Assembly: GCA_903832085.1 (NCBI GenBank)
Contig: CAIKZZ010000032.1
Span: 7,275 to 71,274 of the forward strand
Origin: an uncultured Pseudomonadota bacterium
GTDB taxonomy: Bacteria > Pseudomonadota > Gammaproteobacteria > Steroidobacterales > Steroidobacteraceae
Length of the DNA stretch: 64,000 nucleotides
Reading direction: 5' to 3'
In this document: piece after piece, positions 57,016 to 64,000 of the stretch
How positions within the stretch are numbered: position 1 is the first letter of the stretch
Layout of the letters: each line of letters begins with the position of its first letter
Notes under the pieces: model-generated
Told to the model about the DNA's origin: nothing
The model's database searches: none
Seen by the model: only the letters and a program-made list of their open reading frames with translations
Position numbers and translations under genes: made by a program

Positions 57016-57795
57016 GTGAGCACTCGCTTCACGCGTGCGATCTTACGAACGCCTGGTGAGAGCTATGCGATGGGCATTACGAGCGCAGGCCTTGGTGCGC
57101 CTAATCTTGCGCTTGCGCGCCTACAGCATGCGGCGTACGCCGAGGCACTCATAGGCTGCGGGCTACACATCACTGTGTTGCCGCCGGACGAGGCGCATCC
57201 GGATGGCTGTTTTGTGGAAGACACTGCCATATTAAACGCCAAAGCCGCCATCGTAACGCGCCCAGGCGCCGTCAGTCGGCGCGATGAAACACACGTCCTT
57301 GCTCCAGTGCTGAAAGGTTTTTTTGACGAGCTACGCACCATTGCGGCGCCGGGCACTGTGGACGGCGGCGATATCTGTCAGTGTGAGGAGCATTTTTTAA
57401 TTGGTATCTCGGCGCGCACCAACCCAGAAGGCGCCGAGCAACTCAGCCAATTTCTGCAGGATCTTGGTTACACCAGTAGCTTCATTGATATCCGCGCCTG
57501 CAAAACGCTACTCCACCTTAAAACAGGCATCAGTTATTTAGGCAAAGGCCGACTTGTGGTCTCGGGTGATCTACCCAAAGGCACAGACCTCGGCGCGCTG
57601 ATTCCGGTCCACGTAGCACCGAATGATGCTTATGCCGCCAACTGCGTGGCCATCAATGATCGTGTGTTAGTCGCCGCGGGCTATCCGCGCTTCACTGCAC
57701 AGCTCACGTCACTCGGCTATGATCCCTTACCGCTTGCCATGACAGAGTTTCAGAAAATGGACGGCGGACTTAGCTGCTTGAGCTTGCGGTTTTAA
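57016..57795 (+). CDS. N(G),N(G)-dimethylarginine dimethylaminohydrolase (DDAH) family
   Basis: 259 aa, GTG start. It is collinear with P. aeruginosa DDAH as I remember it (FVEDTAIL, TRPGA.SRR.E, APGTVDGGD, ISARTN.EGA, LHLKTG, AYAANC, C-terminal MDGGLSCLSLRF with the catalytic Cys). Confidence 0.85.
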   Translation: MSTRFTRAILRTPGESYAMGITSAGLGAPNLALARLQHAAYAEALIGCGLHITVLPPDEAHPDGCFVEDTAILNAKAAIVTRPGAVSRRDETHVLAPVLKGFFDELRTIAAPGTVDGGDICQCEEHFLIGISARTNPEGAEQLSQFLQDLGYTSSFIDIRACKTLLHLKTGISYLGKGRLVVSGDLPKGTDLGALIPVHVAPNDAYAANCVAINDRVLVAAGYPRFTAQLTSLGYDPLPLAMTEFQKMDGGLSCLSLRF

Positions 57796-59455
57796 GACCC
57801 ATAGCACGCTCGCGCCACAACTGTGAGGCAGCTGTATCTTGAATCGGCGTATCTTGCTCGAGCAATTCGGCGAGCGCCTGCATTGCTGGCACACTGCCTG
57901 CATCCGCTGCACGCAGGAGCCAGACCCGTGCGCGCTCAAGGTCAGGTGGCGCATTGGCGCCATCGCGATACAAGCAGCCAAGCGCAAAGGCTGCATCTGG
58001 CATGCCTTGCTCAGCTGCTAATTCATACAAGGAAACGGCGCGCGCGAGATCTTGACGCACATGCGTGCCAGTCGCGTACGCAAACCCTAAGTGCAAGGCG
58101 GCCGGCGCGTGCCCACGCGCAACGAGTTGCTGGTGTTTCGCGATCCCGTCGGCAGGCTCCCCACCAATCCCGCGTAGATCAAGCATGCTTAAGTGCAAGA
58201 GCGCCTCCGAATCGTCTGCCTCAGCTGCGCGCAGCCAATATTCGCGGGCACGCTCAAGGTTCACAGGGACGCCTAAACCCTCGGCATACATAAACCCGAG
58301 TCGCTCAAAGGCGGCCACCACCTGTTGCTCGGCTGCTAGCTGAAACCACCCAAGCGCCTCACGCGCATTGGACGGCACACCGATGCCCTCTAGCGCAAAC
58401 ACGCCCATCAAATACTGCGCCTCTCCATCGCCTTCATCAGCGGCTGCTCGGCACACCGTTGCCGCCGAATACCGATCCACTTCCGGCAACTCAAGCAAGA
58501 GACGCGCCAACGAGACGTTCGCCTTCGTCACCCCTTTAGCCGCTGCGCGGCGTAACCAAGTCTCGGCACGCACCAAGTCCGCGCGCCCACCCGCGCCGCT
58601 GCGATACACCTCACCGAGTCGGTACATCGCGTGGGGCTCACCCGCGCGTGCCGCCGCCGCGAGTAATTTTAATATCTGCGACCAATCGCGCGTGGCCGCA
58701 GGCGCTTCCAACAACACCAATGCCAGCGGCAAACGTGCCGCCGCGACGCTCTGATCGACCGCACGCACAAGCCAAGGTATCGATTGCTCTATCGCGCCAA
58801 AGACCCCGTAGTGGCCGGCATAGAGCAAGCCGAGCGCATATGAGCCCATGGGGTCTGACACATCGGCAGCGGCCTTAAACCAACGCTCGGCTTCAGGCAA
58901 TGATTGTAGGATGCCCTCGCCTGCCGCGTACTGGTGCCCAAGACGCACCTTCGCTCCCACATCACCCGCTGCGGCAGCTTGGCGGTTCCAGTGCGCCGCC
59001 TGCGCGTGATCCGCTGCCACATGCAAACCGTCTACAAACATTTGACTCAACAAGGAAGAGTCAGCCGGCTGCGCGAGTCGCGCCAGCGCCCCACCGGATG
59101 CCACGCCACTGGAGTGCAGTCCGGTGAGAAAAATCTCGCCCAAACGCACTTGCGCCGAAAGTACGCCGCCAGCAGCTGCAACCTGATAGGCGCGCACGGC
59201 CGCTGGTGCGTTTTGTAAAACCCCAGTGCCGTGCTCATAGCACTGCCCTAAGTGCCACGCCGCTTGGGGCTCTGTGGCATGGAGCACTTTTAACTGCTGT
59301 ACCGCCTCGGCATAGCGGCCACTGGCGAGTGCTTGGGTAGCACTTTGTACCGTGACAGGTTCGGTGCTGCCAAGGAGCGCAAGCAGCCTGCGCCGCCAAC
59401 GCACCCAGCGTGACTCCAGACGAGGCGCTAAGGCCGCAGGACTCGGCGTTACCAT
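57770..59455 (-). CDS. Sel1-like repeat (SLR/TPR-like) protein
   Basis: 561 aa. About a dozen repeats of the A..W...AA..G...A...LG..Y..G.GV type. No evident signal peptide. The start is 1 nt after the HlyD stop, and the 3' end overlaps the convergent DDAH gene by 26 nt. Confidence 0.8.
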   Translation of the reverse strand: MVTPSPAALAPRLESRWVRWRRRLLALLGSTEPVTVQSATQALASGRYAEAVQQLKVLHATEPQAAWHLGQCYEHGTGVLQNAPAAVRAYQVAAAGGVLSAQVRLGEIFLTGLHSSGVASGGALARLAQPADSSLLSQMFVDGLHVAADHAQAAHWNRQAAAAGDVGAKVRLGHQYAAGEGILQSLPEAERWFKAAADVSDPMGSYALGLLYAGHYGVFGAIEQSIPWLVRAVDQSVAAARLPLALVLLEAPAATRDWSQILKLLAAAARAGEPHAMYRLGEVYRSGAGGRADLVRAETWLRRAAAKGVTKANVSLARLLLELPEVDRYSAATVCRAAADEGDGEAQYLMGVFALEGIGVPSNAREALGWFQLAAEQQVVAAFERLGFMYAEGLGVPVNLERAREYWLRAAEADDSEALLHLSMLDLRGIGGEPADGIAKHQQLVARGHAPAALHLGFAYATGTHVRQDLARAVSLYELAAEQGMPDAAFALGCLYRDGANAPPDLERARVWLLRAADAGSVPAMQALAELLEQDTPIQDTAASQLWRERAMGLKTASSSS

Positions 59456-59456
59456 C

Positions 59457-63085: not shown

Positions 63086-63130
63086 GAGCCTTTGATGCTT
63101 GGGCTGTCATGGCCTTGGCATCAAAGGCTC
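63086..63130 (-). other. 13-bp perfect inverted repeat (stem-loop) in the spacer between the heptosyltransferase and ABC exporter genes
   Basis: GAGCCTTTGATGC (63086-63098) and GCATCAAAGGCTC (63118-63130) are separated by 19 nt. No T-tract follows it on the transcribed (minus) strand. Confidence 0.6.
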
Positions 63131-63162
63131 ACACGCTGTCATCAACGGAGTCTTAAGCGGCC

Positions 63163-64000
63163 TTAAGCGGATGCGCTCACCCCGAAGCCTGGAATCGTCT
63201 TGATGACCCGCCGCACATGCTCGGCCGTAATGAGGCGCGTGCACTCAAACTGCCGCGGCGTGTTGGCGTGCCGTGGGCACCACAGAAAATCCGTGTGATC
63301 AAAGCGCAACTTCGGATCGCTCCAGCAGCCATTACAGGTGTGCCAGTTAATCACTCGGTACGGATTGGTGAACTCGGTTGACGGCAACGAAAAGCCGCTG
63401 ATCAACACCACTTTGGTACCTGCCGCCCAGGCAAGCCACGACAGTCCACTCGACAGTCCCACAAAAAACTCAGCATGACGCATATAACGCGCCGCTTCGG
63501 CGAGCGTGATGCCCGTCATATCTTCGGCACCGTGCGGAATATGCGTCCATACGATGCCGGTGCCGTGCACCGGTTTTTGGTCGACGCAGATCACCCGATA
63601 GCCATTTTGCTTCAAAAAGGCGATAACTTCACGCCAGCCATTGGGGTTATTCCAGTACTTAGCACCCGAGGTCGCTTGCACCGCGATGCAGACATAGCGC
63701 TCGGCAATCGGCCGCGACTCATCCGGTAAACGAAGCTTCGGCGCCTCGTCAGACGGATCCACGCCGAGTATGTAGCCTGCAGTGCGATGCAAGCCCACGT
63801 GACGAAAATCAATCGGCTGCCGATCGCAGGCGATATCGTCAAAAAAGAGGCCCATGGAATAGGTGGCATACACCTGCTCGAGCAGTTTTTGCTGCTGCGC
63901 CTCGACATGGGTCAGTAAATTTAAATTAGGGTAAGCGCCCTTCAGCAGCGGAATAATGAGCCCGGATAACGCCACCGACACTTTCGCGCCCGGGTGACGC
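63163..64000 (-). CDS. Bacterial autotransporter heptosyltransferase (BAHT; TibC/Aah family) homologue; 5' end outside the window
   Basis: The frame is open to the window edge. The visible ~279 aa are collinear with E. coli TibC as I remember it: FRHVGLHRTAGYILGVDP, YVCIAVQATSGAKYWNNPNGWREVIAFLKQNGYRVICVD, GLSSGLSWLAWAAGTKVVLISGFSLP, CNGCW, DFLWCPRH, RQFECTRLIT. Confidence 0.8.
   Translation of the reverse strand, partial: RHPGAKVSVALSGLIIPLLKGAYPNLNLLTHVEAQQQKLLEQVYATYSMGLFFDDIACDRQPIDFRHVGLHRTAGYILGVDPSDEAPKLRLPDESRPIAERYVCIAVQATSGAKYWNNPNGWREVIAFLKQNGYRVICVDQKPVHGTGIVWTHIPHGAEDMTGITLAEAARYMRHAEFFVGLSSGLSWLAWAAGTKVVLISGFSLPSTEFTNPYRVINWHTCNGCWSDPKLRFDHTDFLWCPRHANTPRQFECTRLITAEHVRRVIKTIPGFGVSASA

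Follow-up and report, generated by a model that had tools for sequence, protein, structure and literature searches.

The locus described here raises the question of why a heptosyltransferase of the TibC/Aah family (BAHT), a family known for modifying autotransporter adhesins, is encoded next to the genes of a type I secretion system. The locus lies at the end of a stretch of 64,000 nucleotides (nt) from an uncultured Pseudomonadota bacterium of the Steroidobacteraceae (contig CAIKZZ010000032.1, assembly GCA_903832085.1, positions 7,275-71,274, forward strand). The whole of this stretch is called the window. Four genes on its minus strand encode part of a BAHT, an ABC exporter, a HlyD-family adaptor and a Sel1-repeat protein. 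The original prediction, made from the letters of the window, had joined these genes into one apparent unit and proposed that the enzyme could glycosylate the cargo of the exporter. Judging from the genes of the locus and of its relatives, we consider it fairly probable that a system for the glycosylation of giant adhesin-like proteins and for their export by type I secretion is encoded here, its downstream half lying in the window. The enzyme family and the secretion system are both known, and their combination was not found described in the searched literature.

The proteins of the locus were searched with Pfam and NCBIfam (TIGR) profiles at their curated cut-offs, and structure comparisons were made against the PDB. 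The part of the BAHT inside the window matched TIGR04414 with 429 bits (E = 1e-128). The full-length enzyme, read from scaffolds that extend the window, matched the same equivalog model with 570 bits, the cut-off being 200 in both cases. The full-length protein of one such scaffold (L002) contains the domains TibC_1st (PF21129, E = 1.6e-22) and Glyco_transf_9 (PF01075, E = 7e-11); only PF01075 is found inside the window, PF21129 lying beyond the edge. Residues 59-445 align to TibC (4rap, E = 1e-121). The iron-finger cysteines C399, C402, C418 and C430 (C-x2-C-x15-C-x11-C) are shared without exception by 13 homologues, and their positions align with the cysteines of TibC. The 1Fe-0S iron finger of TibC is formed by Cys339, 342, 358 and 370, with a spacing identical to that of the window BAHT (PMC4358343). 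The BAHT assignment of the original prediction therefore passed the profile test, with both the TibC match and the four-cysteine finger in place.

In the literature, the definition and the name of BAHTs tie these enzymes to the autotransporters of pathogens (PMC4358343, PMC8151025). It is established that TibC and Aah act in the cytoplasm on ADP-heptose and beta-helix repeats (PMC4358343, PMC8151025), and these repeats are what BAHTs recognise (PMC4358343). Literature searches on heptosyltransferases or heptosylation together with type I secretion returned no relevant paper; BAHTs were described with autotransporters only. No described case of a BAHT coupled to type I secretion was known to the original prediction either.

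The partners of the enzyme were found past the edge of the window. When the ABC protein was looked up by exact sequence, four metagenome scaffolds were found (L001-L004, ENA GROS21 samples). They differ from the window by 1-7 mismatches over overlaps of 5.6-13.2 kb and reach 9 kb past position 64000. On the minus strand of the window, the order of the locus is SLS protein 1, SLS protein 2, a divergent GT4 glycosyltransferase, BAHT, ABC, HlyD and Sel1, where SLS stands for the strand-loop-strand repeat (AIDA/TibA type, a 19-residue beta-helix repeat, TIGR04415). The divergent GT4 gene, upstream of the BAHT gene, encodes 369 amino acids (aa). It is kept beside the BAHT gene in the closest relatives L085, L087 and L089, with 46-55% identity in L085 and L087. 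Beyond it lie two giant paralogous SLS genes on the same strand as the BAHT gene. SLS protein 1 has about 2,023 aa as called and SLS protein 2 at least 1,500 aa, and both lengths are minimum values because the SLS genes are interrupted by 100-N gaps in each of the assemblies. Extension past 64000 had been suggested in the search for a repeat adhesin, and it thus yielded two giant repeat proteins. A canonical autotransporter directly upstream of the BAHT gene, which would have spoken for a separate system, was not seen there; the GT4 and SLS genes occupy this place. Between the SLS paralogues lies a gap of 1.2 kb (L002:1068-2266), in which a 135-aa open reading frame (ORF) without a family match was the only one called and the sequence looks non-coding. 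This gap probably serves the second SLS gene as a promoter or regulatory region.

The SLS proteins carry the repeat type that BAHTs modify and lack the export features of an autotransporter. TIGR04415 matched in 14 stretches (E = 4e-52), Pfam AIDA (PF16168) matched as well, and the PDB matches were Ag43 (7koh, 6e-18) and the TibA passenger (4q1q, 7e-18). The proteins contain no Cys and about 25% Ser and Thr, and the two parts of SLS protein 2 that are assembled contain 26 VxSGG motifs. As read from the sequence, the N-terminus of SLS protein 2, MTTVTTLSGNTTIIGKANSD (MTTVTTLSGN...), runs straight into the repeats and has no signal peptide. The autotransporter beta-barrel (PF03797) was found neither in a 1098-aa SLS part nor in the last 350 aa, where Pfam detected AIDA repeats only. 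The NCBIfam model auto_AIDA-I matched an SLS protein only at passenger positions 175-506 of 1287. Because they have neither a Sec signal peptide nor a C-terminal beta-barrel translocator, the SLS proteins cannot be autotransporters.

It could be objected that this is an ordinary BAHT-autotransporter pair, and that gaps in the assembly of a repetitive gene have removed the beta-barrel or signal peptide of the autotransporter. There are indeed 100-N gaps inside the SLS genes of all four extending scaffolds, and the called SLS lengths vary by assembly (278, 798, 1043 and 1096 aa). However, the C-terminus, the stop codon and the downstream GT4 gene are contiguous and identical in the four assemblies, and both SLS paralogues have the same ending. 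For SLS protein 2, the assembly includes the N-terminus, which has no signal peptide. In addition, a beta-barrel domain occurred in none of 36 homologous partners elsewhere. With these observations, we find this explanation hardly credible.

Both SLS paralogues have in common a C-terminal region of about 200 aa. Its model, of low confidence (predicted local distance difference test, pLDDT, 44.7), contains beta strands followed by about 130 residues predicted to be disordered. On this model, the region is compatible with a C-terminal secretion signal and is not a demonstration of one. A fold search with the model was not justified at this pLDDT.

The partners of related BAHTs (58-68% identity) were surveyed in 79 GTDB loci. 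Nearly all of these loci come from Alphaproteobacteria, mostly from Acetobacteraceae. In most of these loci, a giant SLS ORF directly follows the BAHT gene. A scan of the start regions of the BAHT-adjoining SLS ORFs of at least 600 aa showed that nearly all begin with MT.Y.VSSGQTSSG... and have no signal peptide. Among the complete C-termini of such SLS proteins (36 proteins, last 350 aa), an autotransporter domain was present in none, a Hint_2 domain (intein/hedgehog-like) in 19 and RTX repeats in 2. Examples that end in Hint_2 are L012:11220-13913, L014:11228-15553 and L175:11341-14412. In the same 36 segments, Glyco_trans_1_4 matched in five and a ParBc_2 nuclease in one, which hints at SLS repeats fused to enzymes or toxin-like domains. 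Six proteins picked in the search for such glycosyltransferase fusions proved to consist of SLS and Hint_2, and BLAST with GT4 queries gave nothing.

If the SLS proteins are exported without a signal peptide, the adjoining transporter genes offer a possible route. The ABC protein contains ABC_membrane (PF00664) and ABC_tran (PF00005), and it has a weak match to Peptidase_C39 (PF03412, 26.5 bits; cut-off 22). Its best NCBIfam model is the HlyB-type TIGR01846, with 542 bits, which is under the cut-off of 725. The HlyD protein matched TIGR01843 with 284 bits (cut-off 209), and also HlyD_3 and HlyD_D23. The calls of an ABC exporter and a HlyD adaptor are therefore supported by Pfam and NCBIfam, the HlyD match being above its cut-off and the HlyB-type match under it. 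For the N-terminal 150 aa of the ABC protein, the best PDB matches were non-catalytic C39-like domains (3b79, and HlyB 3zua), and these matches are weak (E about 0.02-0.06). Extending this weak alignment would place Thr17 at the position of the catalytic Cys and an Ala at that of the His. The domain had been described as Cys-less. This would hold functionally, Thr17 replacing the catalytic Cys in the extended alignment, but not literally, as Cys39 is present in the domain.

A link between BAHT and type I secretion genes was found again outside this species. In L173, the BAHT, ABC, HlyD and Sel1 proteins are 67%, 74%, 64% and 47% identical to those of the window, and the locus also encodes a TolC, a TPR protein and an SLS protein that lacks a signal peptide. 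The genes of L173 are in divergent orientation and in a different order, and a linkage that survives such rearrangement argues for function. L021, a metagenome-assembled genome of the Stellaceae, has the order SLS-BAHT-SLS-ABC-HlyD, with an ABC protein only 41% identical to that of the window. RTX repeats are present in both of its SLS proteins (E = 8e-14 and 3.5e-5), which also have a C-terminus in common. The P0017 contig encodes a BAHT, a 2585-aa SLS protein, an ABC protein and a HlyD protein, and the SLS stop codon overlaps the ABC start. The coupling put forward by the original prediction is thus supported by independent recurrence in L173, L021 and the P0017 contig. In L171, the BAHT gene lies between the genes of two giant RTX-bearing proteins (L171:1175-9823 and L171:11348-19942), one with Big_13 and RTX and the other with SLS and RTX; one of them has 53 VxSGG motifs. 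Their last 120 or so residues are almost identical (...ASRLFVGA), as would be expected for a shared C-terminal secretion signal. A survey of BAHT neighbourhoods for HlyB/HlyD genes had been proposed as a check. Among nine sampled neighbourhoods of the closest BAHTs, type I secretion genes adjoined in three, and one more had RTX cargo.

The conservation of the transporter genes was followed in the other direction by a metagenome scan with the ABC protein, which gave 80 loci with orthologues at 49-98% identity. HlyD follows the ABC orthologue in 72 of the 80, and then comes a TolC-like gene in 27 loci or a Sel1 gene in 23. The order Sel1 then TolC was found in two of them. A small ORF of about 110-150 aa directly upstream of the ABC orthologue was seen in 12 loci (among L089-L168), on the same strand in 11. 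It has the motif MHFRER..VVQ.IRT.YD...KKGKNEIVGRL.KANP... and no Pfam match (e.g. L144:9400-9840 and L147:142-585), and its product may be a cargo of this secretion clade or regulate it. The loci often encode TPR proteins with a conserved C-terminal domain outside Pfam (...LMMQFESLG..CEFG.VQR..GAEPLGL.RWA...). Large multi-domain glycosyltransferases (WbsX+GT4+GT2), GT2 enzymes and methyltransferases are also present. Examples of such TPR/glycosylation loci are L099:1079-3907, L167:2595-5315, L153:8638-10758 and L115:5918-9892. This suggests that the type I secretion clade is generally associated with glycosylation genes.

Several of our results weigh against a joint glycosylation and export system. 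The BAHT and GT4 genes were present in only one of the 80 ABC loci (L089, of the same species), and no SLS repeat was seen on any of the 80 contigs. In L085 and L087, which contain the closest relatives of the BAHT, the GT4-BAHT-SLS genes have no adjoining type I secretion system. Because the 80-locus scan and L085/L087 show each alone, ABC-HlyD-Sel1 and GT4-BAHT-SLS are separable modules, and the linkage of BAHT and type I secretion is recurrent, not universal. No RTX nonapeptides were found in the SLS cargo of the window lineage, and RTX proteins are the classical cargo of ABC exporters with a C39-like domain. The C-terminal domain of the SLS proteins is nearly unique, with four clusters among 5.8 billion proteins, and its relatives in L169 and L170 adjoin neither a BAHT nor a type I secretion system. 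A wider family for this domain was therefore discarded, with only the four clusters found and the L169 and L170 loci being uninformative. The window contains no TolC gene, and none was detected in the 10 kb upstream. The absence of TolC and of a repeat cargo inside the window had been noted before and was borne out by our search. The TolC gene is often unlinked to the other type I secretion genes. Among the orthologous ABC loci, an OEP/TolC-like gene adjoins in the 27 already counted, and TolC is encoded in L173 too. Finally, BAHTs appear to act on the folded beta-helix (PMC8151025), and type I secretion needs unfolded cargo; this paradox is equally present for autotransporters exported by Sec.

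The same data bear on the explanation that the two groups of genes are unrelated neighbours. ABC-HlyD-Sel1 would then have another cargo of its own, and GT4-BAHT-SLS would have landed alongside, its products being exported otherwise. The 79 ABC-orthologue loci without a BAHT and the lack of SLS repeats on their contigs favour this, as does the common pattern of ABC-HlyD followed by TolC or Sel1, often near other glycosyltransferases and TPR proteins. The absence of an adjoining type I secretion system from the closest BAHTs extends to L088. Moreover, a hairpin in the spacer between the BAHT and ABC genes could separate two transcripts. However, L173 keeps the ABC, HlyD and Sel1 orthologues beside BAHT and SLS after rearrangement, and L021 and the P0017 contig have independent BAHT-SLS-ABC-HlyD operons. 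Export of the SLS proteins would have to take place without a signal peptide, and the hairpin is not conserved and lacks a T tract. We regard unrelated neighbours as the main alternative, if an unlikely one.

The hairpin deserves a closer description. The original prediction had noted an 89-nt spacer with a 13-bp perfect inverted repeat, and this was confirmed in the sequence: the arms are GAGCCTTTGATGC (63130-63118) and GCATCAAAGGCTC (63098-63086). The fold is stable in the window, with an energy of -38.8 kcal/mol (z = -2.95), and a GAGGA ribosome-binding site follows it directly. There is no T tract, and the scan called neither a terminator nor a promoter in the spacer. In L089, the hairpin is not conserved (z = 0.25), although the proteins of L089 are about 98% identical. 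An intrinsic terminator was ruled out by the missing T tract, the lack of a terminator call and the non-conservation in L089. For the same reasons, we take the hairpin neither for a boundary between transcripts nor for a conserved element of regulation. Termination at this hairpin had been named as an outcome that would make the secretion genes a separate operon, and the hairpin does not look like a terminator.

The last of the four genes encodes the Sel1 protein, which matched PF08238 in 6 stretches (E = 3e-51) and no other Pfam family. The earlier observation that it lacks a signal peptide holds for the protein of the window and for its orthologues alike: in none of the 23 proteins (the Sel1 protein and its 22 orthologues) was an N-terminal hydrophobic, signal-peptide-like or transmembrane-like stretch found. 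Most characterised bacterial Sel1 proteins are periplasmic or secreted and have a signal peptide. The Sel1 gene usually stands directly after HlyD in the 23 ABC loci that carry it, and 22 of these have no BAHT. From this pattern, this type I secretion clade has Sel1 as its conserved third gene, with or without a BAHT. Because no orthologue has an N-terminal hydrophobic segment, the Sel1 protein is most simply seen as a cytoplasmic accessory protein, and it probably serves the secretion clade as such. A role as a holdase or adaptor is speculative. Literature searches on Sel1 proteins in type I secretion operons found nothing relevant.

In the original prediction, the Sel1 protein was the only nearby candidate for a cargo, and it might itself be the secreted or heptosylated product, or both. 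It has no signal peptide, and its gene lies inside a type I secretion operon. It diverges faster than the transporter proteins, as shown by its identity in L173 (47% vs 74% for ABC and 64% for HlyD), and type I secretion signals are C-terminal and not recognisable from sequence. On the other hand, the protein contains PF08238 repeats only and no SLS repeats; Sel1 repeats are alpha-helical, and BAHTs recognise the beta-helix (PMC4358343). Its orthologues occur in the 22 loci without any BAHT, and in L140 and L146 the gene is placed between HlyD and TolC like a component of the machine. A far better BAHT substrate adjoins. We therefore consider a Sel1 product very improbable; the likelier cargo is the pair of SLS proteins just past 64000, which carry the repeats that BAHTs target.

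Returning to the joint system, the following course of events can be proposed. The two SLS proteins would be made without a signal peptide. By analogy with TibC and Aah, the iron-finger BAHT would transfer heptose from ADP-heptose to Ser/Thr residues of the SLS repeats in the cytoplasm; VxSGG motifs are abundant in these repeats. The GT4 enzyme might attach a second sugar or extend one, as suggested by its conservation beside BAHT in L085 and L087. We infer from the gene neighbourhood that the modified proteins would be exported in one step by the ABC protein, with its C39-like domain, together with HlyD and a TolC encoded elsewhere. Recognition for export may take place through the C-terminal region common to both SLS paralogues. 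Outside the cell, the proteins would fold into glycosylated beta-helix fibres that may be adhesins or aggregation factors. In the cytoplasm, Sel1 could be a cargo-holding or adaptor subunit of the secretion clade.

A wider proposal can be derived from these data, and we put it forward tentatively, as it is quite likely to be wrong. BAHTs might not be autotransporter-specific at all, and a large undescribed branch of them might heptosylate beta-helix proteins that have no signal peptide and either exit through type I secretion or bear Hint domains. The type I secretion clade that bears Sel1, with its frequent glycosyltransferase neighbours, might be specialised for cargo glycosylated in the cytoplasm. 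Sel1 might then be a holdase or adaptor that hands the cargo over from the ring of the glycosyltransferase to the C39-like domain of the exporter.

The proposed system can be compared with systems that are already known. It resembles Aah/AIDA-I and TibC/TibA of E. coli (type Va) in the enzyme, with TIGR04414, the TibC_1st barrel, the GT9 core and the four-cysteine iron finger, and in the type of target repeat (TIGR04415, Pfam AIDA). Enzyme and substrate genes are clustered in both, and the modification is presumably cytoplasmic and from ADP-heptose, which here would follow from the genes. It differs in that the substrates have no Sec signal peptide and no beta-barrel translocator, type I secretion genes would replace the function of the translocator, and a second glycosyltransferase (GT4) is conserved.

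HlyA, LapA, SiiE and MpIBP are giant repeat adhesins or RTX proteins secreted by type I systems of the HlyB/HlyD/TolC type with a C39-like domain. The present locus shares with them the putatively non-catalytic C39-like ABC protein and HlyD, putative cargo genes that adjoin the transporter genes, and a giant repeat cargo that is acidic and free of Cys, has no signal peptide and consists of paralogues with a C-terminal region in common. The analogous BAHT loci L021 and L171 carry genuine RTX repeats. In contrast, the cargo here has autotransporter-type SLS repeats instead of RTX nonapeptides, a pair of cytoplasmic glycosyltransferases belongs to the locus, and Sel1 is part of the transporter operon. 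Unlike the giant type I adhesins, the locus showed no N-terminal retention module and no release genes of the LapG/LapD type.

Cytoplasmic modifying enzymes are encoded with the ABC exporter of their product in RaxX-RaxST-RaxABC of Xanthomonas oryzae, where the enzyme is a sulfotransferase, and in the glycocin system SunA/SunS/SunT, where it is a glycosyltransferase. The logic of a modifying enzyme plus an exporter is the same. However, those products are small leader-bearing peptides cleaved by a catalytic C39 domain, whereas the cargo here exceeds 1,500 aa and the C39-like domain is predicted to be non-catalytic. In the HMW1C/HMW1 system of Haemophilus influenzae, a beta-helical adhesin is also glycosylated in the cytoplasm before export by an enzyme of the adhesin locus, but this enzyme is a GT41 N-glycosyltransferase that attaches N-linked hexose, and export occurs by Sec and TpsB two-partner secretion (PMC8151025).

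If the joint system is real, O-heptosylation would be a general decoration of beta-helix adhesins, independent of the export route, and type I secretion could carry heavily glycosylated polypeptides. The locus bears on how type I systems recognise and thread cargo without RTX repeats, and on how a substrate that BAHTs bind in folded form stays competent for export. It also bears on the annotation of thousands of environmental genes as "autotransporter strand-loop-strand O-heptosyltransferase" or "autotransporter passenger repeat protein". BAHT, GT4, ABC, HlyD, Sel1 and the cargo make up a compact gene set that might serve glycoprotein secretion.

The features of the locus inside the window are collected in the table below. 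On re-reading the sequence, all coordinates and junctions of the four minus-strand genes held.

Features of the BAHT and type I secretion locus inside the window (positions in the window)
Feature	Position	Strand	Description
BAHT 3' part	63163..64000	(-)	838 nt including stop, C-terminal 278 aa; full gene of 455 aa runs past the window edge
BAHT-ABC spacer	63074..63162	(-)	89 nt; 13-bp perfect hairpin at 63086-63130, then GAGGA ribosome-binding site
HlyB-type ABC exporter	60848..63073	(-)	741 aa; degenerate N-terminal C39-like domain
HlyD-family periplasmic adaptor	59457..60851	(-)	464 aa; start overlaps the ABC stop by 4 nt (ATGA)
Sel1-repeat protein	57770..59455	(-)	561 aa; 1-nt gap after the HlyD gene

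At their 3' ends, the Sel1 gene and a convergent gene on the plus strand (57016-57795) overlap by 26 nt (57770-57795). The product of the plus-strand gene has a weak amidinotransferase/ADI-like Pfam match. No terminator was called between these two genes. The locus gave no signal of horizontal transfer, its GC content being 58% vs 57% for the window.

Elsewhere in the window, genes for the catabolism of methylated amines and of betaine/choline were found at 8185-16677 and 34692-40542. They encode two tandem fusions of an FAD oxidase and a GcvT-like aminomethyltransferase (810 and 819 aa), an MttB-superfamily methyltransferase that scored under the trimethylamine/pyrrolysine cut-off, and a BetA-like choline dehydrogenase. 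An ORF with BetI-like and GbcA-like parts was also present. The BetA-like protein weakly hints at Steroidobacteraceae-like Gammaproteobacteria, which agrees with the receptor-rich surroundings described next; tRNA, rRNA and marker genes were not found. The regions 17260-26863 and 47349-49901 contain three genes for TonB-dependent receptors (888, 850 and 850 aa) and two adjoining TPR-repeat proteins of 683 and 671 aa.

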